Source: a virus
Lineage: Duplodnaviria; Caudoviricetes
Virus record (IMG/VR): IMGVR_UViG_3300033388_004729
Location: 1 to 60,124 of that record
DNA: 60,124 bases
Strand: one strand, 5' to 3'
Shown: in pieces, positions 15,870-56,477 of the stretch
Position numbering within the stretch: the first letter of the stretch is position 1
Layout of the letters: each line of letters begins with the position of its first letter
The notes under the pieces: model-generated
Databases searched by the model: none
Told to the model about the DNA's origin: nothing
Seen by the model: only the letters and a program-made list of their open reading frames with translations
Made by a program: the position numbers and the translations under genes

Positions 15870-16114
15870 ATACGATGATACGAGTGCCCGACAAAGACAT
15901 TTTAGAAGCAGAAGAAATGTTAATCACAAATCTCAGTATAGCATATTGTCAAGACCCCGGTGGTTTCGAGAATGATATACAGTGTGAAGATAAATATAAT
16001 AGTGGAATTCTGCGAGATATAATTCACAAAACCTTAAAAAAATGGGGACAATCAGAAGAATATATCCGGCGAAGGAGTAGGTATCACGACGTTGATGAAT
16101 ATTATAAGGAGTGA
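15866..16114 (+). CDS. hypothetical protein
   Basis: 82 aa, GTGA overlaps. Confidence 0.5.
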   Translation: MNTMIRVPDKDILEAEEMLITNLSIAYCQDPGGFENDIQCEDKYNSGILRDIIHKTLKKWGQSEEYIRRRSRYHDVDEYYKE

Positions 16115-17406
16115 ACAACATGAATATATTAATTACAAGTGCATCACAAAAAGTCATTTTGATAGAATCATTCAAAAAAGCAATTCGTGAATTAAAAATT
16201 GAATGTGGTGTGATTGCTGCTGATATATCTCGAAATTCATCCGCTTTGTATTTTGCTGATGATTATGTCATTGTACCAAGGAGTGATGATGATGAATTCA
16301 TAAATTTTATATTGTTATTATGCAAAGAAAAAAAGATTAAACTAATCATCCCCACACGAGACGAAGAGCTATTAACATTTTCAATAAACAAAAAACGGTT
16401 TAATAACATTGGCACAGAAATAATGGTATGTAATCCCGATACAATACGAACCTGTCAAAACAAAAAAATGTTTGTACAGTTTTGTATTGATAATAATATT
16501 CCAGTTCCAGAAACATATAATATTGCTGATGTTGTTAATTTTCCATTGTTTAGCAAACCAGTTACCGGAAGCGGTGGTAAAAACATTTTAAAAATTAATA
16601 ACATTCATGAATTAGAGGCAATAACAAAACAGCATTTAGATATAATAATTCAAGAGTATATTGAGTGGGATGAGTACACGGTAGATTTGTATGCAGATTT
16701 TAATAATAATATTAAATCTGTTGTCCCGCGCCGGCGTGTTGTTGTTAATGGTGGTGAATCAGTCATAACTACAACACACAATGACCTGAAAATTATTAAT
16801 GCAAGTATCGATCTTGCTAAAAAATTAAACCTTATTGGTCATAATACAATTCAATGTTTTTACAATGGTGATGATATAAAATTTATAGAGGTAAACCCTC
16901 GTTTTGGTGGAGCAGCACATTGCTCATTTGAAGCAGGAGCATTTACACCAAAATATATAATACAATTAATTATGGGACTGCCAATATCAGATAACATCGT
17001 GAAATTTAGAGACAATCTTACGATGTTAAGATATTCTAATGATTATTTCTTAAATCGGGAACCTAAAAATATAGATGAAGGAGAAGAAGTTGTTTGTATA
17101 GATTTTGATGGTGTAATACATAGATATTCAAAAGGATGGTATGACGGCAGTATATATGATATTCCGAACACTGGAACAGAACAAGCTTTAAGAAATATAA
17201 TATCAAATGGATATAAAATAATAATCTGCACTGCCAGAACCAATTTGTTAGGCGTTCGGAACTGGATGAATAAACATTTTCCTGGTATCTCTGTTGAAAT
17301 AACAAATATTAAACCAGCCGCTAAAATATATATTGATGACAAGGGATTCAAATTTCTGTCGTGGAGTAAAACTGATATAAAGTCGACAGCGCATGAGGTA
17401 GATTGA
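16111..17406 (+). CDS. ATP-grasp ligase (carbamoyl-phosphate-synthase-like) fused to HAD-superfamily phosphatase
   Basis: NILITSA, LIIPTRD, KPVTGSGG, IIQEYI, FIEVNPRFGG; C-terminal IDFDGVI...ICTAR...KP.A..YIDD. Confidence 0.85.
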   Translation: MNNMNILITSASQKVILIESFKKAIRELKIECGVIAADISRNSSALYFADDYVIVPRSDDDEFINFILLLCKEKKIKLIIPTRDEELLTFSINKKRFNNIGTEIMVCNPDTIRTCQNKKMFVQFCIDNNIPVPETYNIADVVNFPLFSKPVTGSGGKNILKINNIHELEAITKQHLDIIIQEYIEWDEYTVDLYADFNNNIKSVVPRRRVVVNGGESVITTTHNDLKIINASIDLAKKLNLIGHNTIQCFYNGDDIKFIEVNPRFGGAAHCSFEAGAFTPKYIIQLIMGLPISDNIVKFRDNLTMLRYSNDYFLNREPKNIDEGEEVVCIDFDGVIHRYSKGWYDGSIYDIPNTGTEQALRNIISNGYKIIICTARTNLLGVRNWMNKHFPGISVEITNIKPAAKIYIDDKGFKFLSWSKTDIKSTAHEVD

Positions 17407-18891: not shown

Positions 18892-19161
18892 TTAACCGCC
18901 TCCTGCTTCATGTTGTATAATTGAAAATTCTACTGAATCTGATGGTGAAATATTATATTCACTTGAATTTGTTAATGAGATTGTATATTCCAAATCGCTG
19001 GATAATGAAATATTATATTCTGATGTGCTGGTCAGTGAGATATCGTATTCACTTGAATCAGATAATGTGATTTTAAATTCAGGTGATACTATTAATTTAC
19101 TTGACCAATCTATTACATTGTATAATCCTAATATATGATAATCATCATATGTAATAATCAT
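18892..19161 (-). CDS. small protein with 10-aa repeat (EYxISLxxxx), partner of the beta-helix protein
   Basis: Five to six tandem 10-residue units; paralog of 22023..22217. Confidence 0.6.
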   Translation of the reverse strand: MIITYDDYHILGLYNVIDWSSKLIVSPEFKITLSDSSEYDISLTSTSEYNISLSSDLEYTISLTNSSEYNISPSDSVEFSIIQHEAGGG

Positions 19162-21770
19162 GTTGTATAAACCCCTATAATTCTTTCATTACATCCAGAG
19201 GCTGTGAATTTCAGTGTGAATACATCGGCGTTGGTTTCAGCCTGTGTCAACCCATCTAAGAGTATATACATTCCATCGCTAACTTCAGTAATTGAATTTG
19301 TAAGGGATACAAACGCTGCACCGTCTTTTGATATTTTACCCGACACTGTTTTACCAGTTGCACCAGTTTTATTGTCCGACGACAAAACCATTAGAAACTC
19401 AAATTTCGGCAATGCAACATTTTTGGCAATTCCAGAAGGGAGATTATCAGTCTTTGCTTTAATTGTTGTGACGTCGGATTGTAGGGATGTAACGTCCGCA
19501 CTTAACCAGGACCCCGAACCATGCGCAGAATTCAGTTCTGTTGCGGTGGGGACATCGGATAAGTTTGCAGGGATGTAAGCCATTTCAGTATCGTACTCAT
19601 TAGTAGGTGCCCGGCCAGATATTGCAGCGTCAATATAATCTTTGAATAGCTTTCCAAAACTCGCAGTTCCATCCACGTCTGCAGTTAGCGTATTCCAGAA
19701 CTCGACCGCAGTGATACTTCCAGTGTCCATAAACACATCAGCGATGTGACCATTGGCCCAAAAGTCCCCTTCAATGGTGTTGAGCACACCGGATAAGATG
19801 TCTGTTTTTTTAAAGTCCATCCAAGCAGAAGCACCAGAATTTACTAGATATGTTGAGATTGTAAGTTTAGCTAATCCTGTTCTGGTTGGTGTGCCCGAAA
19901 CAGTGACTCGTTCCCAGGTATCAGTTACATTGCTCATCTGGTCGCTGTCTTCGGTGATGCCCTGTCCCGATATAGTAATCTTCGGTCTGTTGGCATCGGT
20001 GTAGCTAGCATTCTTACGAAGCCATGCAGAAGCCACAATTTGCTCCCCGTCTTTGACAGGAATATAAATATCATAGTCTAGCCATTCTGCATTGTTTGCT
20101 TGGTAGTCAAATCTTGTAGCATATGAGCCATATTTATATATGCTACTATCTCTTACTACAATTCCGTTTACGTACCATGCTTTGTCGGCATATTCAACTT
20201 GCCCCAAATCTTCACATTGGACGTAAGAACCAGTTAGAGCGTTGTGTATATTGCTTACTGGTGATGATGAGCTAAGTTTAGAATTTATAAAAACTATTGA
20301 TGAAAAAGCACCGTTAATAAATCGAATGTCTCCAGATGTATGTGTTGTTAAAATTCCCGATGCTGTACCCAATTCAGATTCTGTAATTGAACCAATGTTA
20401 CAAATATAATATAGTATTAATCCATAAGTTGTAGAATATGTTGTATCACCGTTTATTTTCCAATTATCGCCTGACGGTATTGAAGCACCACTCAAATAGA
20501 TGTTAGTTGTTGTATTTCCAAATAGGTTAATATTATTAAAAGCACATGAACATCTTGATAAGTATATTCCATAGTTATTATTTCTCCAGGATGTAAAACC
20601 AGAAATTGTACTTGAATAAACATTCGATAAATATATGCCGTAGGAATTGTTTGAATGAACTGTATTATCTGAAAAGTTCAAAATGATATTTGTATCAGAA
20701 AAATATACACCATACCCGTTGTTTGATGTAAAAGTATTTCCGGTTATAATTTGATTTACATTCATGGATCTAAAACCATAGTCATTAATACCGATTATAA
20801 TATTATTTGAAATGGTATTATTGGACCCATAGTATACATAAAAACGGTTATCTGTATTGTATATTACGCAATTATTTATAAAAACATTTTGAGAGTAATA
20901 TAAATAAAATGGATAGTTACTTGTTGCTAAGCCCCATATTGAACAATAAGAAAAATTAGTGGCATCGGATGCGGTTGTTCGAATCTCAATTCCATGTTTA
21001 TATGTTGCGTTATATCCAATCATATAAAATTCAACATAATCTACATTGGAAGTTGAACCAACGGGACAATAGACATATCCTCTATATGTAGTATTGTAAG
21101 AAGTAACAACAACGTTTCTGGTGAGATTAATTACTTCTGCTTGTGTTGGTGATGTGCCTGAATGAGCATAGGTTACTCCTGCCACACAGGTTATTTGGGT
21201 GCCACTATCAACTGTTTGAATTACTTCTTGCTCATGTTGTGAGTATGTTCTTGTTGTTGATGCAATGGCTACTTTATCGCCTACTTCCCAGTTCGTAGTA
21301 TCTCCAACTGTCCAAACGGTTCCTGTGGCTGATAAATCTGATGTAAGTAAGGTGTGTGGTGTTTTTGAAGCACCCTGCATAACCATATCACCATTGTTGA
21401 TGAATCCATACTTCCCTTCAGCCAGTGCCGCAGAGTAGTTTAATTTTATAGTGAATATCCTAGCTGCAGGAATTGGATTAGCAACGGTACCAAATTCAAT
21501 CGTACCACCTGAACTGGTTTGGAGATTGCCTTTACAAGTTAAAGTATAATCTGCAGCAACTGTATGAAGTACTTCTAACTTACCACCAGATGCAACGTCA
21601 ATGGCCGCTGTGGCTGAGTCAGCACCAACGGTGATATTTTGGTCAATAGTAATCGTATCGCCGGTTTGAATGATCACTGTGTCGCCTTCACTAGGAACTG
21701 CTGCCCCGGTCCAGGAAGCACCAGCTGACCAGTTGCCCCCACCAGTTCCATTTGAAGTTATTGCAGCCAT
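19158..21770 (-). CDS. G8-domain / right-handed beta-helix protein, putative receptor-binding or depolymerising spike
   Basis: GNWS...W...VP..GDTV.I G8-like start, AEVINLTRNVVV, repeated NNxYGIY PbH1 units, carbohydrate-binding-like module. Confidence 0.75.
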   Translation of the reverse strand: MAAITSNGTGGGNWSAGASWTGAAVPSEGDTVIIQTGDTITIDQNITVGADSATAAIDVASGGKLEVLHTVAADYTLTCKGNLQTSSGGTIEFGTVANPIPAARIFTIKLNYSAALAEGKYGFINNGDMVMQGASKTPHTLLTSDLSATGTVWTVGDTTNWEVGDKVAIASTTRTYSQHEQEVIQTVDSGTQITCVAGVTYAHSGTSPTQAEVINLTRNVVVTSYNTTYRGYVYCPVGSTSNVDYVEFYMIGYNATYKHGIEIRTTASDATNFSYCSIWGLATSNYPFYLYYSQNVFINNCVIYNTDNRFYVYYGSNNTISNNIIIGINDYGFRSMNVNQIITGNTFTSNNGYGVYFSDTNIILNFSDNTVHSNNSYGIYLSNVYSSTISGFTSWRNNNYGIYLSRCSCAFNNINLFGNTTTNIYLSGASIPSGDNWKINGDTTYSTTYGLILYYICNIGSITESELGTASGILTTHTSGDIRFINGAFSSIVFINSKLSSSSPVSNIHNALTGSYVQCEDLGQVEYADKAWYVNGIVVRDSSIYKYGSYATRFDYQANNAEWLDYDIYIPVKDGEQIVASAWLRKNASYTDANRPKITISGQGITEDSDQMSNVTDTWERVTVSGTPTRTGLAKLTISTYLVNSGASAWMDFKKTDILSGVLNTIEGDFWANGHIADVFMDTGSITAVEFWNTLTADVDGTASFGKLFKDYIDAAISGRAPTNEYDTEMAYIPANLSDVPTATELNSAHGSGSWLSADVTSLQSDVTTIKAKTDNLPSGIAKNVALPKFEFLMVLSSDNKTGATGKTVSGKISKDGAAFVSLTNSITEVSDGMYILLDGLTQAETNADVFTLKFTASGCNERIIGVYTT

Positions 21771-33570: not shown

Positions 33571-33819
33571 TTATCCACTGGCCAATAATTCTTCTGGTGA
33601 CCGCTTGTCGCCCATTGGGGTAATCCCAATTCTGCCAGTTCCAAGTATAAACGAATCATTCATATCGCGTTTATAAATATAATATGAATCAATTAAGCCA
33701 AGTTCTTCCTCTACAGACATGAAATTTAATAAAGAGTCTGACATTGAGCCGATATTATCCTCCAATCTTTTAAGCCTGGTCTGGATATCCCCTATAATTA
33801 ACGATACTGGATTTATCAT
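33571..33819 (-). CDS. hypothetical tail protein
   Basis: 82 aa, FILG...IG...GD; ATGA overlap. Confidence 0.55.
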   Translation of the reverse strand: MINPVSLIIGDIQTRLKRLEDNIGSMSDSLLNFMSVEEELGLIDSYYIYKRDMNDSFILGTGRIGITPMGDKRSPEELLASG

Positions 33820-35867
33820 ATTTCCACCAGCGACAGATTATTTAGTATAAACGCCTTTGTCATACTATGGGATGAACTTAAAACTTTCATATTTTTATCA
33901 ATTGCAACACCGGGTTCTGTAATCGTTAATCTGATTACATCGCCTGCAATTATATCATTACCGTGAATAGTTATTTCAGCCGTTTTTTTATGAGTTTTTA
34001 CAATCATCTGATTTGCTTTTAGTTCTGCTAATTCGGATGATTCTATTTTCTCATCTCTAAAAACTTCAACATACATTCCATATTGGTCTTGTGATGCTAT
34101 ATCATTGTTCATGACTGCGACCCGGGCGGGAGACCTGGTATTAAAATCTAAATCGTCACTGCCATCCACACCCACTTTAACACCGTCTGCGGTGGTACCC
34201 TCTAATACCATCCAATATGTATCCCCGGGGGTCACGGTGACTGGATTTGTAAATTTTAATTCTGTTTTACCCTCGTCAGTGATATTATCAAGTAATACAA
34301 TTGCTGCGGATTCTGGCAAAATCACACCCGATGGTGAGCCCGTTGAATCTTCTTGAATCGATATTGTAATGTTTGATGAACTACCCGAAACAAATTCAGT
34401 ATGCACGAAAACACTAGATAAATATTCTTCAGTCGGTACAAATGATTCATTTTTCGGTGTTGAATCTGTGATGGTTGTTGTGGTCGTCTCAGTAGCACCA
34501 GTTTGATCAATACTCTGCTCATATCCCCCTATTACTATTGCCCGATTAACTATTTTCAAAGTGTCAGATATAGTGGGTGACCCATCTAGGTCATCATCGG
34601 TGATTGTATCGGTGATTACATATGCCGCCGGATCATAGAAATGTAATCTCTTGTCTGTGTCAATGTGCCACTCATACCCAACCTCATTTGCGAGATCATT
34701 TATTGCAGATGATACGGATACCCAGTTGAATGTCGCTGAATCAATTGTAAATGCTGTAGTTTCAACATTATCATAATTTGAACTTACATCCATCAATTCT
34801 CTATATTTCTGACCCGTTGTGTAATCTGTTTTTTCTAATATCCCTGTTGCAATTGCAGAGACTTCAGTATCATAGAATCGCGCAGGGAAAAACATATGAT
34901 TTAATTTATAGCCCCAGTCTTCGCCAGACACTTCCATTATGGGTAATACCTGCGAACCCTCGAGTGTTTTGTTTACATTCGTAATAATACCAACAAGTTT
35001 AACAGTGTCTACACCACCAACCCCCATATAAATTGCAATTTCACAACCCTGCTCAATATACGAATATGCATCTGATTCATTCGTAAGAACAAATGAGAAT
35101 CTATCGGCGGCCTGCGAACCAGATAAATCAAGATTGAGCCGTTGAATATTATCAGTTATTGCATATCCTTCATCATCGAGATCAGTTATCAGTACCCGGG
35201 ACGTTGGGATGTGCTCATGTGTGCCACCCGGATGATTATAAAGAAATGTTCGTTCACCTTCATTTAGACCGCGGGTATAAAGCCGCATTTCGTCCATTGT
35301 ACCGTCGAAATATTCAGTGCCCCCGTGTGATCCCAACAGCAACGGATGTGAATTAGCAGGACCTAACCCAAGTGCATGAGTTGAATCTAATTCATTATTA
35401 ATATATATTTTAGTTTCATTTCCAATTACTGTGATAAGTATGTGTGTCCATTTGCCCACATCTATTACATCCGTGGAAGTTACCCCAGTAGTTCCATTAT
35501 AAAATCCTATCTTCTCATCATTATATACATAGAAATTATAATTTACATTTGCCGAACCTGTGCCCTGGCGCTTTGCTAATATTCCGCCGATGTGCGAAGA
35601 ATCTAATTTGATCCATCCGCTGAATGTAATATCGGTTGTTATGTTGAGACTACTATTTATGCCACATGTGACATATTCAGAATTGCTACTATCGAAAATC
35701 AGTGCACCACCGGATATTCCATTTGTAGTCCATGTTGGGGGTCCTGTAAGATCCCCAGTATTCCCTTTACCAGATAGGTCGGCAGATGTAGACCCTGCGC
35801 CCTCATTAAACGACCAATATCCTACCAGCCCATTATCAAGATTAATGCTCATAAGTCCTTCAACCAC
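33816..35867 (-). CDS. LamG (concanavalin A-like) domain fused to tail hub/baseplate protein
   Basis: GLVGYWSFNEG...GKWTH...FDGTMDEMRLY; then D.FSF...GEDW...AINDLA...YEWHID...LHF. Confidence 0.8.
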   Translation of the reverse strand: MVEGLMSINLDNGLVGYWSFNEGAGSTSADLSGKGNTGDLTGPPTWTTNGISGGALIFDSSNSEYVTCGINSSLNITTDITFSGWIKLDSSHIGGILAKRQGTGSANVNYNFYVYNDEKIGFYNGTTGVTSTDVIDVGKWTHILITVIGNETKIYINNELDSTHALGLGPANSHPLLLGSHGGTEYFDGTMDEMRLYTRGLNEGERTFLYNHPGGTHEHIPTSRVLITDLDDEGYAITDNIQRLNLDLSGSQAADRFSFVLTNESDAYSYIEQGCEIAIYMGVGGVDTVKLVGIITNVNKTLEGSQVLPIMEVSGEDWGYKLNHMFFPARFYDTEVSAIATGILEKTDYTTGQKYRELMDVSSNYDNVETTAFTIDSATFNWVSVSSAINDLANEVGYEWHIDTDKRLHFYDPAAYVITDTITDDDLDGSPTISDTLKIVNRAIVIGGYEQSIDQTGATETTTTTITDSTPKNESFVPTEEYLSSVFVHTEFVSGSSSNITISIQEDSTGSPSGVILPESAAIVLLDNITDEGKTELKFTNPVTVTPGDTYWMVLEGTTADGVKVGVDGSDDLDFNTRSPARVAVMNNDIASQDQYGMYVEVFRDEKIESSELAELKANQMIVKTHKKTAEITIHGNDIIAGDVIRLTITEPGVAIDKNMKVLSSSHSMTKAFILNNLSLVEI

Positions 35868-36874
35868 CCTATTTTAGCATTAATATGATCCATCAGTGGC
35901 TTTGTAATCCCACAGGACGACGCTTTCTTAATCTCAGTATTGCCTATAGCAATTGAATCAGCCGCACAACCACCTGCGCAGAAGTCAACATAATCACATT
36001 CCTGGCATTCATCATCAAGATTATATACAAATGATAGGAACTTCGCCCGGGCATCACCATACCATATTTCATCAAATGTGTTTTTGTTTACGTTTCCTAA
36101 CACATAATCATCATTAGCATTATTCAAAACAAAACATTCACAGGGATATACATCACCGAATGTATCGATACAAACTACATGTTCATTACACGTAGGATAA
36201 CATTTGAGATGTGTTTTCCCTAATAATATAAACTGGATCATAATATTGAACGGATCTATCCTAATATACGATTTATTATCATACCACTCATCAAATAGTT
36301 TTATTGCAGCGATCGCAGATTTCTCTTGAAAATTATTAGGAGTCTGGAAGTTTAGCTTAATCCCTTGATTCATGTGATGAAAAAAAGGATAGAATTCGTC
36401 GATATGATCACAGGCATATTCAGACAATACAGCAATACACCCGAAGGGTATCTTGCGTCGATTCATCTCAATCATTGATTTTATGATTGTATCGAATGCA
36501 CCCGAACCCATGTTTTTATCATTAATAAATATGTCACCATCTAATGACGTAGAGACACCATAATCATATTTCTGTATAAAATCATACCATTCTGGCGTTG
36601 CTAATGTCATATTTGAGCAAATTACCCGGTCAATGTTACATCCAATTTCAGTAAATCGCCGCTCTGCATCCTCATAAAACTCTAACGGCATCATCATAGG
36701 CTCTGCAGCATGCCATTCGATGTGACCATTCTCACAATTCAACTCGTGTGCCTTTGCACAGAAATCAATTGTATTATATAGTGTAGTTCGATTCATCCTA
36801 TTATGCCCTTTTCGAGCATTGCAGTATGTACAAGACAGATTACATTCATCAGTCGGAAGGATTGAGGTTATCAT
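35849..36874 (-). CDS. radical SAM/SPASM domain protein (peptide/protein maturase type)
   Basis: CNLSCTYC, AAEP, STSLDG, C...C...GDVYPC, CQEC.....C.GGC. Confidence 0.92.
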   Translation of the reverse strand: MITSILPTDECNLSCTYCNARKGHNRMNRTTLYNTIDFCAKAHELNCENGHIEWHAAEPMMMPLEFYEDAERRFTEIGCNIDRVICSNMTLATPEWYDFIQKYDYGVSTSLDGDIFINDKNMGSGAFDTIIKSMIEMNRRKIPFGCIAVLSEYACDHIDEFYPFFHHMNQGIKLNFQTPNNFQEKSAIAAIKLFDEWYDNKSYIRIDPFNIMIQFILLGKTHLKCYPTCNEHVVCIDTFGDVYPCECFVLNNANDDYVLGNVNKNTFDEIWYGDARAKFLSFVYNLDDECQECDYVDFCAGGCAADSIAIGNTEIKKASSCGITKPLMDHINAKIGWLKDL

Positions 36875-39411
36875 ACCAATGACACCAGCCGCCGGTATAA
36901 TTCCCTGTCGTGTTTGTCAAGTAATGATTCTAGGTGATCAACTCCCAGGACCGTCCCAATATTATAAGTCATCTGCATGTGCGCAGGCTTGCCGCCACCT
37001 TCCATGACCAGGGCGCCAGCCTTTGGCACTACGTACTCACCTTCGTGGATTCTAGCGTCCGAATCCTCAGTAACGGGGCCACCCTTCGCCATGGATATCT
37101 GCTCCCATTTTGTATGCCCTGCCTGGTCATGCTGACTCCATACATCATATTGACTATGTGGTGATGATTTATCATGAAGACTGTGGGATGGAATTACAAT
37201 CTTTGGCATGGTCAGTGAAGGCCATTTTACTGTTATACTTGAGAAATCAAATAGTTTTACTATTGAATTATACCAACTTTGTAAAGTGCTTAATACACTA
37301 GATGTAAATGAAGTGAATGCAGATTTAACATCTTCCACCCACCCGGTAATAGTAGAATATGTATTCAAAACCCATTTTAGTATTATTCCCAGCGCATCGA
37401 TTGACCAATATACTATAATTGACAATATGCCGCCTGACCAGTCATCGATTTTCTGTAATATATCAGATACCCAGTCTGCAAAACCCTGTTTAGTAGATTC
37501 TATCCAGTTAGATATTTGTGTTTTTGTATTTTCTGCCCAATCCGCAACACCTTGTTTAATAGCTTCCCATAATAATGAAAACAATGTTTTGATTAATTCA
37601 GTCCATGTTTCAGTCATCCCTTTCATTTTATCAAATGTAGTACCAAGATGTTCTTTTATTGTTTCCCAGGCACCTTTCCAATCCCCTTCAATAAGAGCTA
37701 ATATGACATTAATTGTGACCATGATGTTATTCATGATAATATCGACTGTTGTTTTGATGGTTTCCCACACTACATCTACAATCATCATGATGGTGTCGCC
37801 GTGTGCATTCCAAAACTTTTCAATTGAATCTAAACCAGCGCTTATAATATCCACTATTATATCTACAATTTTAAGTGTGGTATCCTTGATTCCATACCAA
37901 TTCTGGTCCCATGCCACGGCCAAAACACCCATTACAGCCACAACCGCCAAAATTGGAGACATTATCAGTGCAATGGCGGCAGCAATGGCAATAGCGAACT
38001 TTGTGGCGGTGGGATGTTCTGCGAAAAATCCTAAAACTGCTGAAACCGCTTCTGCTAATGTATTGAATACTCCAATTGTAACGTCTAATACTGAGGACAA
38101 TGATGTCATTGCAGTTTCGTTATTGCCAAATTCAGTGCTTAAATCTGATATAATTGTCGTGATGCTTTCTGCAGATGATTTAAATGCATCAAGTCCTGGC
38201 TGTAGTTTGTCTATAAGCGCAGATGCTGAAGATATAATCCCATTAATGAAATCACCAGACAGTGTTGCAGCAAATGAATCTATATTAGGCAGCATTTCTG
38301 AAATCGTATCAGATACTGCTTTTATATGTGGTGCAAACTTTTCTCCTATTGTAATCGCAACCGCATTAAAATTGTTTTTAAGTAGTTGGATGGCTGCTTT
38401 TAGTGTGTTGGTTTTTGCTGCAAATTCATCTGCCAATGATGTGTTTTCCTCAAAACCTTTCGCCGATCCTTCAAGGTTGATCAACAATCCTTCTAAATCT
38501 CCACCAAGCCCGGTGATTGATTTTGCTCCAACAATCCCAAACATCTCTGATGCTGCTGTAGCTCTCTCCAGCGGGTCTTCAATTGTAGACAATTTCTCTA
38601 CAATCTTAATAATCATAGCCATTGGGTCCTCGCCAAAAGCCGACCTGAATGCATCTTCAGAAATACCTAAAAATTCTGATACTTTATCGATGTTTGCCGC
38701 CATCTTTGTGAATGCAGAGTTTAATCTCGTTCCTGCATCTGATGCATCCATACCCATTGAAATTAATGTGGCACCCAATGACATTGATTCGGTCGCAGAA
38801 AAACCCATGTTTACTGCCGCTGCGCCGAGTGACATACCAAACGCAGCGATTTGTGTTTCTGAAGCTGCTGTAGTATTCCCTAGTATATTAATAGCAGATG
38901 CAAAATTTGATGTCTGTTCGATCGGGATATCATAAATCTTCCCCAGCTTTGCCATGGCCGTTGCTGCGGATTCGGCCGACATGTCAAAAGCCACAGAAAT
39001 CTGCGCAACAGTCTCAGTAAACGAAATTATATTTTCGGTGCCCTGAATGCCCAGTTGTCCAGCTATTGCAGCAATGTCCGCCAATTCAACTGCAGCAATC
39101 GGTATGTTTGTAGAAAGTGTTTTGATTTCTGATGATAAACCAGCAAGTGCATCACCTGACAACCCCGTGGTTTTCGCCACACTGGCCATCGCATCTTCAA
39201 ACTCAATGAATGCAGAAATAGATTTTTTAAGGGCAATTACCATACCGCCGATAGCTGCAGCACCGGCCAATGCAGCAAACGCAACCCCCAACTTAGCTAC
39301 GCTTTTTGTGATATTACCTGCAGTATCCTTGAAAGAATTATTCACTTTCTTCAGACTGGCAGTCGCTTTGTCTTTTAATTCGACAAGGATTTCCATCTCT
39401 GCTGCTGCCAT
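36871..39411 (-). CDS. tail tape measure protein (TP901 core)
   Basis: 846 aa; FEDAMASVAKTT, AGQLG, AGTRL, Trp-spaced repeats; MAKGGPV...IHEGEYVVP C-terminus. Confidence 0.92.
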   Translation of the reverse strand: MAAAEMEILVELKDKATASLKKVNNSFKDTAGNITKSVAKLGVAFAALAGAAAIGGMVIALKKSISAFIEFEDAMASVAKTTGLSGDALAGLSSEIKTLSTNIPIAAVELADIAAIAGQLGIQGTENIISFTETVAQISVAFDMSAESAATAMAKLGKIYDIPIEQTSNFASAINILGNTTAASETQIAAFGMSLGAAAVNMGFSATESMSLGATLISMGMDASDAGTRLNSAFTKMAANIDKVSEFLGISEDAFRSAFGEDPMAMIIKIVEKLSTIEDPLERATAASEMFGIVGAKSITGLGGDLEGLLINLEGSAKGFEENTSLADEFAAKTNTLKAAIQLLKNNFNAVAITIGEKFAPHIKAVSDTISEMLPNIDSFAATLSGDFINGIISSASALIDKLQPGLDAFKSSAESITTIISDLSTEFGNNETAMTSLSSVLDVTIGVFNTLAEAVSAVLGFFAEHPTATKFAIAIAAAIALIMSPILAVVAVMGVLAVAWDQNWYGIKDTTLKIVDIIVDIISAGLDSIEKFWNAHGDTIMMIVDVVWETIKTTVDIIMNNIMVTINVILALIEGDWKGAWETIKEHLGTTFDKMKGMTETWTELIKTLFSLLWEAIKQGVADWAENTKTQISNWIESTKQGFADWVSDILQKIDDWSGGILSIIVYWSIDALGIILKWVLNTYSTITGWVEDVKSAFTSFTSSVLSTLQSWYNSIVKLFDFSSITVKWPSLTMPKIVIPSHSLHDKSSPHSQYDVWSQHDQAGHTKWEQISMAKGGPVTEDSDARIHEGEYVVPKAGALVMEGGGKPAHMQMTYNIGTVLGVDHLESLLDKHDRELYRRLVSLV

Positions 39412-39629
39412 TATCCACCCGTCCTAAGTTTATTCATCAATTCAAGTTTTCGTTCTAAGTCATCGCCTGTTGGTTTTTTCTGTGGTTTATCACTTGATTG
39501 TTTAGAGATATAGCGACCCAACATTTTTATATCGCTAATATCTAGACTATCAATATAGTCTAATCTATAATGATAATGGAATGCCAGCGCGGCGGTTAAT
39601 TCTTCGTGCTGGTCGGGGTGGTAAAATCC
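39411..39629 (-). CDS. -1 frameshift extension of the tail assembly chaperone (gpGT-like)
   Basis: G GAT TTT at 39623..39629; the -1 frame stays open (YHPDQHEELTAALAFHYHY...) to a TAA overlapping the TMP ATG. Confidence 0.75.
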   Translation of the reverse strand, partial: GFYHPDQHEELTAALAFHYHYRLDYIDSLDISDIKMLGRYISKQSSDKPQKKPTGDDLERKLELMNKLRTGG

Positions 39630-39928
39630 ATATGATTCATACCCTCATTGGCTGAATTAACTATTTTCAACAGTTCGATGAAATCAAGCAGTTCTATATT
39701 ATCAACCTCCGACATTTCAACATTTGGGAATGCTCGTTTTAGAGTTTCAAAAAGCATTGCTGTAATCACTTCTTCAGTCCCCACCTTCTGTGCTCGCAGT
39801 ACAGATTTAAAACCGCCATAATTAAAGGAACGGACGGTAAAATTTATACCGTCCCGGAACGAAGGCAGTGAAACATCATAATTAATTATATCATGTGCAT
39901 CGCTGTTACTCGCTTTCTTTGCTGCCAT
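39596..39928 (-). CDS. tail assembly chaperone (gpG-like)
   Basis: 110 aa between tail tube and tape measure. Confidence 0.75.
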   Translation of the reverse strand: MAAKKASNSDAHDIINYDVSLPSFRDGINFTVRSFNYGGFKSVLRAQKVGTEEVITAMLFETLKRAFPNVEMSEVDNIELLDFIELLKIVNSANEGMNHMDFTTPTSTKN

Positions 39929-39940
39929 TATATATCACCC

Positions 39941-40732
39941 TTATGTTGCAGTCCATGCCAATGTAAAGTCTGTGTCGGCATCTTTCATCACGAATGGCAA
40001 GTCACAACGTACAAGGGTATCTGAATCACCAACCGGAAAATTACCACCTGTGAAAAAACAGTTGTTTATAGTCACCGTTGCGTGGTTGCTATCTGCATCT
40101 TCAACTTTGCCTATGATATTAAACACTGTTGCATCGCCTGGTGTCATGGACTTTGTGCCAGTTATACCCTCTATTTTCAGTGTATTATATGTTGATGACC
40201 CCATTTGCAGGTTTGCGGATACATCAACATATTCAGTTGTGGTGAATTGTACCGAACCGTAAACAACCTGAGACGCATCACCGACCGTCATTGCAGCAAA
40301 GTCAATCACTTCAGTAATCCAGTCATCGGATCCATTCGTTCCTTGAAGCACGATACTTCCTGATGTGCTGTCTGCATCTCCAACGGTCAAAGTACATTTC
40401 ACAGATGTCGCAACAGTAGGATTTGTTGAAACGTCATATTCTGCCCGAGTATTACCAGACACATCTTCTGCAGCCATAAGTGTTTCGAGTGTGCTTGTAG
40501 TTAATGTACTGCTATCACCCAGTACATATGAAAGTAACTCCGGTGTTATCAATACTTGTGTGATACTTCCCGAAATATCTAATTTTCCAGGATATTTTTT
40601 ATCACTAACCTTTCCAATTTCACCCGATGCAATCACTGATCGTGTTATATCCAATGAGAAATCAGCAACGGTTATCACATCGCTGCCTATTTTTATTTCA
40701 CCGTCTGCCCCTGTAAAATGTTCAGCTGTCAT
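39941..40732 (-). CDS. major tail (tube) protein
   Basis: FTGADG...FSLDI...PGKLDISGSI; position before chaperone and TMP. Confidence 0.75.
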   Translation of the reverse strand: MTAEHFTGADGEIKIGSDVITVADFSLDITRSVIASGEIGKVSDKKYPGKLDISGSITQVLITPELLSYVLGDSSTLTTSTLETLMAAEDVSGNTRAEYDVSTNPTVATSVKCTLTVGDADSTSGSIVLQGTNGSDDWITEVIDFAAMTVGDASQVVYGSVQFTTTEYVDVSANLQMGSSTYNTLKIEGITGTKSMTPGDATVFNIIGKVEDADSNHATVTINNCFFTGGNFPVGDSDTLVRCDLPFVMKDADTDFTLAWTAT

Positions 40733-46779: not shown

Positions 46780-48078
46780 TTATCCACAATTCATGGTTTT
46801 TATATATTCAATTGCTTCTGTTCTTGATGTTATTATCCTATCAAGTTGAAGATTTTCTACTTTGGTTATGATTTTAGATATTATTGGACCGGGCGGAATC
46901 CCCAATGCCATAACATCGTGCCCTGTTATCAATCGCTCGTTTGTTCCTTTTATTTCGGCGTGTGTGCAAGAGTTTATATATTCTAATATTTTAGTTGGCA
47001 ATGTAGTTTTTACCATACTGTCCGCTTTCAACAATTCTAATAATTCATAGAACAACGGCTCCTGAATCAAACGTATCTTTTTTGCATTTCTTAATTCATC
47101 AAATCTATGGATTATCATGTGGTTTGCTACCAACCACGAAACATTACTTACAACACTTTTCTGGAATTTCAGTCTTTTTAATATTTCATTGGCCATTTTG
47201 CACCCCACTACTTCATGTCCACTAAAATGATAATTGTCCCATGTGGGTGGCTTGCCAACATCATGAAGCAAGGTTGCTAATCTAAGCTCCAATGACGCTT
47301 CTTTAGGCAATGATGATAAAGCAATCAATGTGTGTTCATATATGTCCTTTTCTGGATGATATTTGTGCGAACCCGCTTTAAGATTCTTCATTGCTTCTAT
47401 TTCAGGAATTATTTTATATAACAATCCTGTTTTATCAAGAAGTTCAAAACCACGAATATTATACTCGGACATTAATATTTTTACAAACTCGTTGCGTATC
47501 CTTTCATTAGATATTCTAGCAAGGTTTTGTGTTTGTATTTCATCCAATACACGTTTTTTTATCTTGAAATCAAGAACAGTTGCAAGGCGTACTGCCCTAA
47601 CGATTCTTAATTTATCCTCATCAAATCGCAACTTTGGATCCCCTACGGTATCGATCCAACCATATTTAATATCCTCTTCACCACCAAACATATCAATTAA
47701 TATCATTTTAGAATTCATTGCCATTGCATTAATTTTAAAGTCGCGTCTTGACAAATCTTCTTTTATATTATCTGAAAATACTACATCACAATGCCTGCCA
47801 TCACAATTTATATCCCTTCTATATGTCGTTATTTCAAAACACTTATTTTCAATCACAACTGTAACAGTTCCATGCGATACCCCTGTAGGAATGACTTTAT
47901 CAAACAATTTCATAACCATTCCAGGTCGTGCGTTTGTTGCAAAATCAAAATCGGTTGGTGGTTTATTTAGCAATAAATCCCGAACTGCTCCACCAACCAA
48001 AAAACATTCAAATCCTGCATGTTCAAGTGTTGTAAATATATGCTTTATATTCCTATCTACAAGACACATACAAATCAT
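46780..48078 (-). CDS. class II CCA tRNA nucleotidyltransferase / poly(A) polymerase with HD domain
   Basis: LVGGAVRD, DFDFAT, EITTYR, DLSRRDFKINAM, RFDEDKLR, ISNERI..E, H...LLHDVGK. Confidence 0.9.
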   Translation of the reverse strand: MICMCLVDRNIKHIFTTLEHAGFECFLVGGAVRDLLLNKPPTDFDFATNARPGMVMKLFDKVIPTGVSHGTVTVVIENKCFEITTYRRDINCDGRHCDVVFSDNIKEDLSRRDFKINAMAMNSKMILIDMFGGEEDIKYGWIDTVGDPKLRFDEDKLRIVRAVRLATVLDFKIKKRVLDEIQTQNLARISNERIRNEFVKILMSEYNIRGFELLDKTGLLYKIIPEIEAMKNLKAGSHKYHPEKDIYEHTLIALSSLPKEASLELRLATLLHDVGKPPTWDNYHFSGHEVVGCKMANEILKRLKFQKSVVSNVSWLVANHMIIHRFDELRNAKKIRLIQEPLFYELLELLKADSMVKTTLPTKILEYINSCTHAEIKGTNERLITGHDVMALGIPPGPIISKIITKVENLQLDRIITSRTEAIEYIKTMNCG

Positions 48079-48093
48079 AAAATCCCTCCATAT

Positions 48094-48513
48094 TTAACAT
48101 TTATAACCCTCTTTGTAATATTTTTCCTTTTTATTCAAATATACCTTTAAGTACACTTTATTTAACATGAATTTATATATTTTCCAATGAATGAATCGTA
48201 GGTTTTTATTCCAGAAAGTTTTACAGTTTGTTACAATTATATCATTTCCATCTTCGTGTAGTGGAATTTTTGTTATAAATGATTTCTGTTTTGCAAAATA
48301 ACCTCCATCAATTTTAGAATTATATCTTTTATCACAAAACAAATATTTATTTGAAATACCGATAACTCGCCCCAATCTTTCTTGATAAAATGCAACTTCA
48401 ACCCTAGAATTATCTTTTAAAAATTTTCCTGCCACGTTCCCACATTTACAGTGTTTGAACTGTCCCCGGAGTTGTATAACATCTTTGCATACTTTACAAT
48501 ATATTAATTTCAT
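48094..48513 (-). CDS. Cys-rich hypothetical protein
   Basis: CKVCKD...CKCG. Confidence 0.55.
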   Translation of the reverse strand: MKLIYCKVCKDVIQLRGQFKHCKCGNVAGKFLKDNSRVEVAFYQERLGRVIGISNKYLFCDKRYNSKIDGGYFAKQKSFITKIPLHEDGNDIIVTNCKTFWNKNLRFIHWKIYKFMLNKVYLKVYLNKKEKYYKEGYKC

Positions 48514-49202: not shown

Positions 49203-50516
49203 TTACATCTTTAGTATCCGGCTGCGCCCCCGGGATGTGGGGATACTATTTATTTGAACTGGTGCCGTGGTCAATATATTGAATGCTCCAGATGTGGCGT
49301 CAACAATATCATCATGTGCGCCCATCGGGAATTGTTCGAATTCATCCAGCGCAACAGTATTCCACTCACCTTCAATCATGTGGACATTACCATTGAGAAC
49401 CGCGGCAGATAACGGGGTAGCACGAACCGGCTTAGACCCTGTGCTGGATATCCCTTCAAAATAATATCCTTTTAGAATGTTGCGAGCATAATATGATATC
49501 AATGATTTACCCGATGCACCACCTTCCTGCTCCATGTATATCTTTGTTTTTACACCGTCTACTTTTGCAGTTTGTTTAATTATCCGTTCTACTTCCGCAG
49601 CTTCTTCCCTCACACGAATAATATTTTTAATCCAGAATCGTCCCTTCTCTTCTGATAATAAAACCCCAGATGTCCAATCAGGATTTTTACTTTCGCTTAT
49701 ATCCGTTGCGGCTAAGTCCCAAAATCTTACATTGTTGCTACCACCACCGCCCGACACAACCTCAAAATCAGACCGTTTAAACATACCGCCGGTCCTAGAA
49801 TATGGGGTCTGTTGATACATAGCCGCCCACCAGTACGCCCCCACGGTGTCCCGGATTGCCTCTAATGATTCAATGGGATATCTATCACCCCAGAGCGGAT
49901 CACCAACATTTCGACCAAGGATATCATTCTCTTCTGCAATGGCAGGGAATTTGAGAACATCCCACTGCTCACCACCAGCATCCATTTCTTTTAATAGTAA
50001 TCCGCCCAAATCTTCAGGGTGCCAGCGGGTCATAATCAAGATAATTGCTGCGTTGGGTTCCAGCCGAGTGTATGCTGTGGATTGATACCAATCCCACGCT
50101 TTATCACGTTTTAGCTCGCTGTTTGCATCTTCAGCGTTTTTAACTGGATCGTCTATCAATAGCAAATCCGCGCCCTTTCCTGTGATGGCACCACCCACAC
50201 CTGCAGTATTCATACCGCCGGTATGATTAACTATATCCCATCGGTTTCTTGCTGATGAATCAGATCGTACAGACAATCCAAATATTTCAGACCCATATTC
50301 TTCAAAAACATTCCGGGCTTTCCACCCCCATGATGCAGCGAAATCTGCCTCGTAGCTGGTGAGTATTACCCGCTTGTCGGGGCCGTGACCTAAAAACCAA
50401 GGAGGAAAATACTGAGAAATGAATTGTGATTTACCGCTCCTTGGTGGCATTAATACCATTAATCGTTTTATATCCCCTGTCGCAACCTGAACTAATTTAT
50501 CAGATAATAATAACAA
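49203..50516 (-). CDS. terL: terminase large subunit
   Basis: MPPRSGKS Walker A, GKGADLLLIDDP, IMTRWH, YQQ.P, FWDLA, HDDIVDA nuclease; the frame stays open upstream to about 50594. Confidence 0.95.
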   Translation of the reverse strand: MLLLSDKLVQVATGDIKRLMVLMPPRSGKSQFISQYFPPWFLGHGPDKRVILTSYEADFAASWGWKARNVFEEYGSEIFGLSVRSDSSARNRWDIVNHTGGMNTAGVGGAITGKGADLLLIDDPVKNAEDANSELKRDKAWDWYQSTAYTRLEPNAAIILIMTRWHPEDLGGLLLKEMDAGGEQWDVLKFPAIAEENDILGRNVGDPLWGDRYPIESLEAIRDTVGAYWWAAMYQQTPYSRTGGMFKRSDFEVVSGGGGSNNVRFWDLAATDISESKNPDWTSGVLLSEEKGRFWIKNIIRVREEAAEVERIIKQTAKVDGVKTKIYMEQEGGASGKSLISYYARNILKGYYFEGISSTGSKPVRATPLSAAVLNGNVHMIEGEWNTVALDEFEQFPMGAHDDIVDATSGAFNILTTAPVQINSIPTSRGRSRILKM

Positions 50517-54488: not shown

Positions 54489-56477
54489 TTAAACACATCT
54501 CAGACATCCACCACTTGGCTCAAAAATTGCACCTTCTTTCTTCATATGTTTAATAGTATGCTCTAATTCTTCTGCTGTCATACCTTGATCATCCACTCGA
54601 ATTGCTATGTCAGCATATTTAACCGGGCCATCTTTTTGTAATTCTTTAATAATATCCCTTATAAGTTTTGCTTTATCACGCTGACTTTTTGAAATGCCAG
54701 TTTCTACTATTGATGAATCTAACTCCCCGGATTCGTCTAAACTGGTTTCTCGCATAGATGCATCAATTAGTTTAATGGCTCGTTCTGCATCAACTACATC
54801 AGCAGTATTAGATAATCTTAGTTTAGCCTCAGATCGGGTCAATCGGATAAGTGCCTCTAAATTTCTCGTGGTTATGCTGACCACGTCATCAGACGGATTA
54901 TACCCCCCCCTTAAACCAAGATAGTAAGATTTGATTTTATCTAATGCTCTAGGTAATAACTCAACATCCTTAATTTGTCGTGCGATTGAAATATACTTAC
55001 GAATGATATCTATTTGGTTAATATCAACAGTATGATTATTACTCCAGGCACCAACAAGAATATCGGTTATTTTCTCATCAATTTTAGGTGTTGGAGTATC
55101 AAACATTGTAAATATCAAATCAAATCGACTTAATGTATCAGGCCGAATATTTACCTGTTCTGAGATTGATTCAAATCTATCAAATCGCCCGGCCTTTGGA
55201 TTCATGGCACATAATACCGGACATCTCGCCCATAATGTACAATTTATCCCCGCTTTGTTGATATGAATTGTTGAAGATGATAATACCGTGTTTAGTTTTG
55301 GGACGTCTTCATCACGCATTTTATCAAGTTCGTCTATGATGGCTACGGACCGGTCTGATAATACTAATGACCCGGCTTCTAAGGACCACTTAGAACCATA
55401 GAAATCATCCCGTATCACAGCGGCTGTAAGGCCTGCCCGGGTTGACCCGTCGCCTGTGGCCAATTGTGACCGTGGGATTAATTGTTTTACATTTGCTAAA
55501 AGTGTAGACTTTGCAGTGGAAGGATCACCACAGATTAATACATGAGCATAGCCCCGCTGGATTGTCCCATCGGGGCGCAGTATATTTCCTCCTGATACCG
55601 CTGCAGCAAGAAGAGACTCCTTAATTATTTCATATCCATAAATTGATGATGCAAAGCCTTTAACTAATTCATCCACTACATTGTTTTTTTTAGACATTTC
55701 TATAATATGTCGATGGTCTTCATCGGTGATTTCAATGTCTGTTTCAGTATCATTAATATTTACATATCCACCCTCTAACATCATTTCAAATTGTGTGGTT
55801 TTCTGATTGTTATTTGTCTTTTGAAATGCTCTAAGTATGCCGGTGATAGTTACCCGATTACCTGGTAGGACCACACCTGTTATATCTCCATCGATTTGTA
55901 CGTCAATAGTCTGCGGCTGTTCGCCGCCATTAAGATCTTCGGGCGATTCCTGTAGTCGTAGTTTCTGAGTATCAACCATTTTAGAGGTACTCAGTAATAA
56001 TTTGAATGGCCCTTTTCGACCACACATTTCATTTTCACATTCCAAGGGTTCGGTGAATTTATAACCAACTTGGTGTATCTCAGTTACATAACTACATCGC
56101 TGGCATTCAAATTGTGCAATAGTTATCCGGGGCCACACCTCAGATATTTTTTGAACTAACCCAGATACTGTAATAAGTTTATTTATCTTTTCAGTTCTTA
56201 TATCTCGGACCCTCATTGGTTTTTCAATGCCTGAAATGCGAACCGTTGGATTCCAATTATCATCAATAGGCACCGGAATTGACATGTTTTTAAGTCCTTC
56301 ATCCAATTCAGATAATACTTTGTCTGGATCATCAAATAACAAATCCCACATTTCAATATTAAATTTACTGAATACCGTAGAATCTATATTCAGGCTCTTT
56401 TGTTCTGGCCACATCCTGGCCAAATCCAGGACATCATCCCAGTAATATATTTTGAAAAAGTCTTCAGCCCATTGCAT
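54489..56477 (-). CDS. mcm: MCM replicative helicase (archaeal type)
   Basis: Zn finger CQRC/CENEMC, LQESPE...GEQP, Walker A GDPSTAKS, LEAGSLVL, IDELDKM, NPK.GRF, arginine finger LSRFDLIF, TRNLE. Confidence 0.96.
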   Translation of the reverse strand: MQWAEDFFKIYYWDDVLDLARMWPEQKSLNIDSTVFSKFNIEMWDLLFDDPDKVLSELDEGLKNMSIPVPIDDNWNPTVRISGIEKPMRVRDIRTEKINKLITVSGLVQKISEVWPRITIAQFECQRCSYVTEIHQVGYKFTEPLECENEMCGRKGPFKLLLSTSKMVDTQKLRLQESPEDLNGGEQPQTIDVQIDGDITGVVLPGNRVTITGILRAFQKTNNNQKTTQFEMMLEGGYVNINDTETDIEITDEDHRHIIEMSKKNNVVDELVKGFASSIYGYEIIKESLLAAAVSGGNILRPDGTIQRGYAHVLICGDPSTAKSTLLANVKQLIPRSQLATGDGSTRAGLTAAVIRDDFYGSKWSLEAGSLVLSDRSVAIIDELDKMRDEDVPKLNTVLSSSTIHINKAGINCTLWARCPVLCAMNPKAGRFDRFESISEQVNIRPDTLSRFDLIFTMFDTPTPKIDEKITDILVGAWSNNHTVDINQIDIIRKYISIARQIKDVELLPRALDKIKSYYLGLRGGYNPSDDVVSITTRNLEALIRLTRSEAKLRLSNTADVVDAERAIKLIDASMRETSLDESGELDSSIVETGISKSQRDKAKLIRDIIKELQKDGPVKYADIAIRVDDQGMTAEELEHTIKHMKKEGAIFEPSGGCLRCV

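Follow-up and report, generated by a model that had tools for sequence, protein, structure and literature searches.

A radical SAM/SPASM enzyme gene in a viral tail operon and an aromatic repeat in the adjoining tape measure protein

Gene organization of the tail module

The DNA analysed here (the window) is a linear virus record, IMG/VR IMGVR_UViG_3300033388_004729, taken over its whole length of 60,124 bases and with an estimated completeness of 65%. This report deals with a tail operon on its minus strand, in which the gene for a radical S-adenosylmethionine (SAM) enzyme with a SPASM domain is enclosed between the gene for the tail tape measure protein (TMP) and the tail gene that follows it, and with the candidate substrate of that enzyme, an aromatic-rich segment near the C-terminus of the TMP. 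The TMP (P0002; 846 amino acids, aa; 36871..39411) was identified by matches to PF10145 (90.1 bits), TIGR01760 (147.8 bits) and phrog_28 (204.8 bits) and by its position in the tail module, where tail genes flank it on both sides. Upstream of it, on the same strand, are genes for proteins of 110 aa (39596..39928; no family) and 263 aa (39941..40732; a weak match to the tail protein phrog_365, E = 2.4e-4), both assigned to the tail by position. The enzyme (P0001; 341 aa) is encoded at 35849..36874 and was recognised by its CxxxCxxC motif and SPASM domain matches. The next tail gene (P0003, counted from its ATG; 678 aa) lies at 33816..35852, and its product has a LamG-like N-terminal domain (PF13385, 77.4 bits) and takes the position of a tail-tip or hub protein. 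The label "tail hub" is one of position only; distant homologues follow TMPs in other viruses.

The three genes are joined by two ATGA overlaps, which had been noticed in a previous reading made from the letters of this DNA (the sequence-only reading) and were confirmed in the sequence. The TMP gene ends ...GTATGATAACC, where the ATG of the enzyme gene overlaps the TGA of the TMP gene (36871..36874, minus strand). The enzyme gene ends ...TTATGAGC, where its stop codon overlaps the ATG of the next gene (35849..35852, minus strand), and this next gene is therefore taken to start at 35852 and not at the listed GTG at 35867.

The aromatic segment of the tape measure protein

Near the end of the TMP, at 37099..37185 (minus strand), lies a segment of 29 residues, HSLHDKSSPHSQYDVWSQHDQAGHTKWEQ, eight of which are His, Tyr or Trp, in exact agreement with the number and position given in the sequence-only reading. 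This segment is the proposed crosslinking site, and repeats of H/W/Y-x-K/R are found at the same place in relatives. It is followed directly by the C-terminal module of the TMP, GGPV...IHEGEYVVPKAGALV...LLDKHDRELYRRLVSLV (36874..37083, minus strand), which was recognised as conserved from alignments. The segment can be split into the units HSL HDK SSP HSQ YDV WSQ HDQ AG HTK WEQ. The suggestion that each aromatic residue opens a triplet held for eight aromatic-led triplets; the division also needs the non-aromatic triplet SSP and the two-residue spacer AG.

When Lys, Arg, Gln or Asn is counted at the third place of a unit (+2 from the aromatic residue), the TMP of the window has seven units, and Gln is frequent at that place. 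Five or more such H/W/Y-x-[KRQN] units were found in 74 of the 23,067 stop-free 45-aa stretches of the six frames, and these 74 fall in five places that include the TMP end. Judged from the sequence of the window alone, the motif is only moderately unusual, suggestive and not compelling. The case for it is carried by the relatives, because the excess over chance is seen there and not in the window by itself. No tandem repeats were found in the TMP DNA of the window, and the TMP end had no match among GenBank phages. No small motif-bearing open reading frame (ORF) was found near the enzyme, as the previous reading had maintained in stating that no separate precursor gene is present nearby. The only other ORF of annotated size in the window with five such units in 45 aa, a Lys- and Tyr-rich ORF of 139 aa at 48094..48513, is about 11 kb from the enzyme gene and carries them at 48112..48246 (minus strand).

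Motifs, fold and family placement of the enzyme

The enzyme begins right at the motif of the SAM-binding 4Fe-4S cluster, CNLSCTYC (CxxxCxxC, residues 11-18), and the N-terminal recognition domain is absent. The SPASM domain was identified with PF13186 (39.7 bits, cut-off 21.5) and TIGR04085 (53.5 bits, cut-off 27). The Radical_SAM model PF04055 gave 26.9 bits, just below its cut-off of 29.5, and the alignment of the enzyme family to anSME spans the whole radical SAM core. A word-indexed search yielded 19 full-length relatives with 45-70% identity. The three Cys residues of the cluster motif (C11, C15 and C18) and eight further ones in the SPASM region (C225, C229, C245, C290, C293, C299, C303 and C321) are invariant in all 19, and the members are therefore regarded as working enzymes under selection.

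Among the NCBIfam models, DynA scored best for P0001 (156.8 bits) and anSME second. DynA was likewise the top-scoring model, followed by anSME, in each of the 19 family members (best DynA E-value 6e-55), with all scores far below the curated cut-offs. An exhaustive profile search of 1.84 billion representatives gave scores that fell from 586 and 581 bits through 403 and 264 bits to 236 bits and less; as measured by sequence, the enzyme family is small and set apart. The nearest neighbours were scanned for 80 of the 150 best representatives, with proteins of more than 500 aa and lower ranks left out, and DynA was matched at E<=1e-80 by 53 of the 80 and anSME by 10. This placement supports the expectation that the enzyme would cluster with peptide-modifying radical SAM families. 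About 20 proteins of 750-840 aa (P0047, P0048, P0050, P0055 and others) match the enzyme profile in two or three stretches; they could be DynA-like neighbours in which radical SAM units are fused in tandem. Among GenBank phages, the enzyme was matched only at 27% identity or less.

The AlphaFold2 model of the enzyme (predicted local distance difference test score, pLDDT, 83.4) was compared with solved structures using Foldseek, and matched anSME with template modelling (TM) scores of 0.79-0.82 and the triceptide synthase ChlB with TM scores of 0.77-0.81. By sequence, the best solved-structure match was again anSME, at 131 bits when the family profile was used. At the position of the catalytic Asp of anSME, which in the profile alignment follows the matching Cys, the 19 viral members have Glu (16) or Ser (3); this position does not discriminate between the chemistries. 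In a complex prediction made without controls, the enzyme, the C-terminal 125 aa of the TMP, SAM and three 4Fe-4S clusters together scored 0.00, which counts neither for nor against the pairing. On the evidence of sequence and model, the enzyme is best described as a minimal peptide- or protein-modifying SPASM enzyme that is nearest to the DynA-like crosslinkers and belongs to none of the curated families.

Conservation of the locus in related viruses

Related loci (L001-L025, of which 24 are distinct, L015 being a duplicate of L002) were collected by alignment-guided scans of viral contigs. Queries of these contigs with the enzyme alone or the downstream protein alone had produced no matches, and alignments were used instead. 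Every locus has the enzyme next to the TMP C-terminal module, and the module profile matches all of them; in L024 and L025 the enzyme is cut off after 21-27 residues by the end of the contig. A 4-base NTGA overlap is present upstream of the enzyme gene in 25/25 loci (the 24 distinct ones and the window), and the gene directly upstream is that of the TMP in 22 of the 24 distinct loci, as it is in the window. Homologues of the downstream tail gene follow the enzyme in the relatives. A second radical SAM gene (289-294 aa) was found between the TMP gene, which lies just before it, and the SPASM enzyme gene in L003 (286..1170) and L012 (2065..2934), with HxsC as its best match (123.9 bits, cut-off 267.9). 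The subclade with this second gene consists of viruses with a Trp-rich instead of a His-rich TMP end. Three loci have the enzyme gene split over two frames (L019, 2757..3762; L021, 237..1296; L023, 1648..2215), by either frameshift or assembly error, and in L010 (8757..10004) the open frame of the TMP upstream extends over no more than 415 aa.

The conserved TMP end of the relatives has the form GGPV..D.NADIHKGEYVVPKKGALV...KHDRDLYRKLVSL, and the aromatic strings stand just before it, for example PHDKSAPHDKSAPHSKSAPHNRSHEKWDR, IPHDKGHDKGHDKGHDKSGHDKG and HNKSAPHDKSSGGHSQSHYDRAS...SGYDRG. The units HDK, HSK, HNK, HNR, HEK, YDR, YDK and WDR recur in these segments. In the 18 distinct TMP ends that were verified beside the enzyme, Lys or Arg is found at +2 from 75 of 149 His, Trp or Tyr residues; its share is 5-15% at the other eight offsets, and the background of the segments is 13%. 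Six further TMPs were found by similarity alone, their gene context being unverified, and with them included the count at +2 is 117/240. In this set of 24 TMPs, position +1 is Asp or Glu in 45%, position +3 is Ser, Gly or Ala in 50%, and position -1 is often Pro or Gly. The K/R units were also compared with shuffles of the same segments, and in most sequences 3-8 were observed where approximately 1-2 were expected. Close relatives differ in how many units they have and in how these read (PHDKSA three times, HDKG four times, YDR), and the register is kept; this combination of differing units and constant register points to selection on the unit rather than on the sequence. The TMP end of L012 is rich in Trp (WEK, WVK, WDK, WNK, WGK, WKK, WVK), and here the aromatic residue has changed from His to Trp with Lys at +2 retained.

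Other motifs were counted in 25 distinct TMP ends. H-x-S occurs in one of them, and the link to His-Xaa-Ser repeats made in the sequence-only reading was accordingly dropped, the recurring unit being aromatic-x-Lys/Arg. Nine of the 25, including that of the window, have no Cys in their last 160 aa, the sulfatase-type motif [CS]x[PA]xR occurs in none, and the extended sulfatase signature was not found in the six frames of the window. Because of these counts of Cys and of the sulfatase motif, formation of thioethers, or of formylglycine at the classic motif, cannot be the shared function.

Control loci without the enzyme

Distant homologues of the downstream tail protein were located in 34 further loci when viral contigs were scanned with an alignment of that protein, and the enzyme family and this type of TMP end are absent from all 34. 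The 27 loci (23 distinct) with an upstream ORF of at least 350 aa were used as controls. Genome contigs searched with the same alignment gave mostly bacterial LamG-domain proteins, which were excluded from the controls. Most of the control upstream ORFs end in a TMP-like manner (...GG.V...H.GE.V.P... or ...GEAGPEA.IPL...) without the aromatic segment, and in 25 of the 27 loci the downstream homologue follows the upstream TMP with no intervening ORF.

The maximum number of H/W/Y-x-[KR] units per 60 aa in the last 220 aa of the controls was 0 in 12, 1 in 8, 2 in 2 and 3 in 1. For 13 controls the shared module could serve as an anchor, and the stretch in front of it has a median of 0 units and 4.5% H/W/Y. 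The corresponding median for the 16 distinct verified TMPs (at least 150 aa) beside the enzyme is 5 units per 60 aa, with 4-7 units in 13 of the 16, and H/W/Y make up 8-19% of their segments. The difference in unit counts has a Mann-Whitney P of 1.9e-7. This value is uncorrected for relatedness and serves as description only, since all enzyme-bearing viruses belong to one clade and a single gain may account for the difference. With the same reservation, these counts bear out the proposed tie between the motif and the enzyme gene.

Comparison with known radical SAM systems

Triceptides are three-residue cyclophanes in which an aromatic residue is linked to a C-beta carbon, and they are formed on aromatic-X-X motifs (PMC11499958). 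HtkB joins His-C2 to Lys-C-beta on HTK, and the preference for a basic residue at the third place is governed by a single acidic residue of the active site, D214 in HtkB (PMC11499958). The published similarity network comprises 5369 cyclophane synthases (PMC11499958). YhhB acts on HNR, ChlB on YDR and HaaB on HAA (as cited in PMC11499958). The viral enzyme resembles the triceptide synthases (HtkB, YhhB, ChlB, HaaB, XyeB, GrrM/OscB and FxsB) in being a radical SAM/SPASM protein, with a modelled fold that matches ChlB, and the eight aromatic-led triplets of the window provide an adjacent candidate substrate with aromatic-X-X motifs. HTK in the TMP of the window and HNR and YDR in those of the relatives are identical to published motifs, and the basic third residue of the relatives' units is that used by HtkB, YhhB and ChlB. 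Unlike the genes for these synthases, the viral enzyme gene lies in a tail operon.

DynA (the dynobactin maturase, NF041298) can be aligned with the viral enzyme from end to end (residues 2-335 of the enzyme on 2-353 of 356) and is equally minimal in size, likewise lacking an N-terminal extension. Dynobactin contains two rings, each spanning three residues, in which an aromatic residue is joined to the residue two positions on. DynA differs in acting on a small precursor in Photorhabdus, and the viral family is a separate small group. The dynobactin sequence is WNSNVHSYRF and its target BamA (PMC10125368).

The His-Xaa-Ser system (HxsA with the radical SAM pair HxsB and HxsC) also has short His-led repeats beside radical SAM enzymes, and L012 and L003 have a comparable pair, one SPASM and one HxsC-like enzyme. 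The HxsC-like enzyme is confined to these two loci, whereas the window is without a second enzyme, and the HxsB model gave 68.2 bits (cut-off 370).

Proposed modification of the tape measure protein

The reading favoured here, to which we give slightly better than even chances, is that the enzyme crosslinks the TMP's own C-terminal aromatic linker. The sequences establish the order and coupling of the genes, the class of the enzyme, the motif with its register and the co-occurrence of the two; which protein is modified, what bond is formed and what it is for are inferred from them. The TMP and the enzyme would be made from one message with coupled translation, and the aromatic linker of the newly made TMP, being unstructured, would be modified by the enzyme while the tail is assembled or earlier. 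SAM would be cleaved reductively by the enzyme, a hydrogen would be abstracted from the side chain at +2 after His, Trp or Tyr (mostly Lys or Arg, and often Gln in the window), and the resulting carbon would be joined to the aromatic ring. The product would be a row of three-residue cyclophane rings, each with a loss of 2 Da, of the kind that triceptide synthases make on small peptides.

The C-terminal TMP module of tailed phages is generally located in the tail tip. The crosslinked stretch would then be located just before the conserved TMP end at the tail tip, where the rings would stiffen the linker and shield it against proteases. The fuller statement, that a dedicated radical SAM enzyme of archaeal tailed viruses puts a row of three-residue cyclophanes into the TMP linker to give a rigid, protease-proof tail-tip segment that enters the host envelope first, is advanced tentatively, as falling somewhat short of an even chance. 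The roles named in the sequence-only reading, tail-tip rigidity and a released peptide, are speculation. Taken together, the comparisons suggest natural-product chemistry applied to a protein of the virus particle.

Several observations weigh against crosslinking of the linker. The enzyme fell short of every curated family cut-off, among them those of DynA (156.8 bits against 450), GrrM/OscB (98.5 against 310) and YhhB (64.7 against 445). The triceptide models AmcB (85.5 against 425) and FxsB (46.2 against 370) were below cut-off for P0001 too, and XyeB was absent from the 25 families shown for P0001 and gave 41.6 against 450 for its relative P0045. Triceptide synthases use short precursors that bear a leader, and here the candidate is a TMP of 846 aa in which no leader was identified; its conserved C-terminal module may act as a follower sequence. 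The TMP of the window has two strict aromatic-x-K/R units (HDK and HTK; P = 0.21 against shuffles). L010 has the enzyme but at most one such unit, its TMP end reading instead HEHYSYPSPLYP...GEHYSIPGP (including HEHYSYPSP), and P0044, whose context is unverified, has two units and carries YDV and YDH. The segments of the window, L010 and P0044 are still rich in aromatic residues (10-16 per 60 aa). Co-occurrence of enzyme and motif is confounded by descent, since the enzyme-bearing viruses are one clade, and a close relative that had lost the enzyme was not found. Fused TMP-enzyme proteins were also sought, in a weak search, and none scored.

The enzyme might instead modify the TMP end by another chemistry, for example an anSME-like oxidation of Ser, a C-N or C-O link as in dynobactin and darobactin, a bond to a carbon other than C-beta, or epimerisation; this is considered unlikely, although of some weight. 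anSME is the closest solved structure both by sequence and by fold as well as the second-best NCBIfam model, although its own cut-off was not reached (TIGR03942, 123.4 bits against 349), and since it acts on a full-length protein it is a precedent for a SPASM enzyme with such a substrate. Departure from C-beta also has a precedent in WprB, which is reported to form a link from Trp-C5 to Arg-C-gamma (PMC11851443). Many of the viral units are preceded by S-x-P (SAPHDK, STPHSK), but neither the HDKG repeats of L017 nor the Trp-rich end of L012 have this element, and the general feature is the register of an aromatic residue with a basic one at +2. Oxidation of the anSME kind is further disfavoured by the lack of the sulfatase-type motif in the viral TMP ends, and DynA-like proteins outnumber anSME-like ones among the scanned neighbours.

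Two other accounts place the product or the substrate elsewhere. The substrate may not be the TMP at all: the enzyme could act on a molecule of the host, on a small peptide that escaped recognition or on the tail protein encoded downstream, and the aromatic segment would then have an unrelated role, say in metal binding or contact with the cell envelope. His-rich stretches can bind metals, the enzyme passed no family cut-off, L010 keeps the enzyme beside a TMP end without aromatic-x-K/R units, and radical SAM genes elsewhere in phage genomes are not tied to tails: the Phass-1 homologue, whose GenBank phage context was the only one checked, sits among small hypothetical genes. Against these points stand the fixed position of the enzyme gene and its 4-base coupling to the TMP in all 25 loci, a motif register equal to that of published triceptide substrates, the absence of the segment from the TMPs of the 23 distinct enzyme-less control viruses and of any other motif-rich ORF near the enzyme, and the switch from His to Trp in L012, which argues against simple metal binding; we regard another substrate as improbable. 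A very remote prospect is that the TMP end is the precursor of a RiPP (a peptide made by ribosomes and modified after translation) fused to a structural protein, from which the crosslinked segment would be excised to act on the host or competitors in the form of a free cyclophane peptide. Some tape measure proteins do undergo proteolytic processing, and the repeated core-like units resemble RiPP precursors with multiple cores. The nearest named family, DynA, makes an antibiotic peptide. Excision would nevertheless sever the C-terminal module, since conserved parts of the TMP flank the segment on both sides and the module itself is conserved as it is in TMPs at large. The genes adjoining that of the enzyme are tail genes, and none was recognised as coding for a protease or an exporter.

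Covalent chemistry of virions has so far been known mainly as self-catalysed crosslinking of capsids. If the proposed crosslinking of the TMP is true, it would add a new manner of virion construction, in which one of the tail proteins is tailored by an accessory radical enzyme. It would be the first case of a radical SAM enzyme crosslinking a structural protein of a virus, and the first in which a triceptide-type modification is made on a large protein and not on a small peptide. Chemistry of this kind is known; what would be new is that it acts on a virion protein of 846 aa and is encoded in a viral tail operon. Genome mining for substrates of cyclophane-forming enzymes should then look more widely, beyond small natural-product peptides. 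In a literature search that left subscription journals largely uncovered, no report was found that links a radical SAM/SPASM enzyme to a tape measure protein or that ties triceptides or radical SAM RiPPs to a phage or virus; the sole archaeal-virus paper containing both "radical SAM" and "tape measure" has the terms in unrelated passages.

Host and other genes of the window

The large terminase gene was located at 49203..50516, and a match to a capsid protein was weak (PF25209, 25.9 bits, below the cut-off of 27). An MCM helicase is encoded at 54489..56477 (minus strand), with OB, P-loop and lid regions (MCM, 228.7 bits) and an archaeal winged-helix end (MCM_WH_arc, 26.5 bits, cut-off 26.1). 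From these genes the window is read as that of a tailed virus, probably one of an archaeon, to which the helicase with its archaeal winged-helix end points; the enzyme-bearing group as a whole consists of uncultured tailed viruses, probably of archaea. Cellular genome contigs were scanned with the helicase for a clue to the host, and no close relatives were found in them.

Three further genes of the window were noted. A CCA-adding tRNA nucleotidyltransferase (phrog_2244, 232 bits) is encoded at 46780..48078 (minus strand) in a window without a tRNA gene. A PylC-like ATP-grasp ligase (PF21360, 79.3 bits; ATP-grasp_3, 62.9 bits) is encoded at 16111..17406 (plus strand); ATP-grasp enzymes also modify peptides. 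The gene at 19158..21770 (minus strand) encodes a NosD/beta-helix protein of 870 aa with a G8 domain, which is possibly a receptor-binding or envelope-degrading tail protein.

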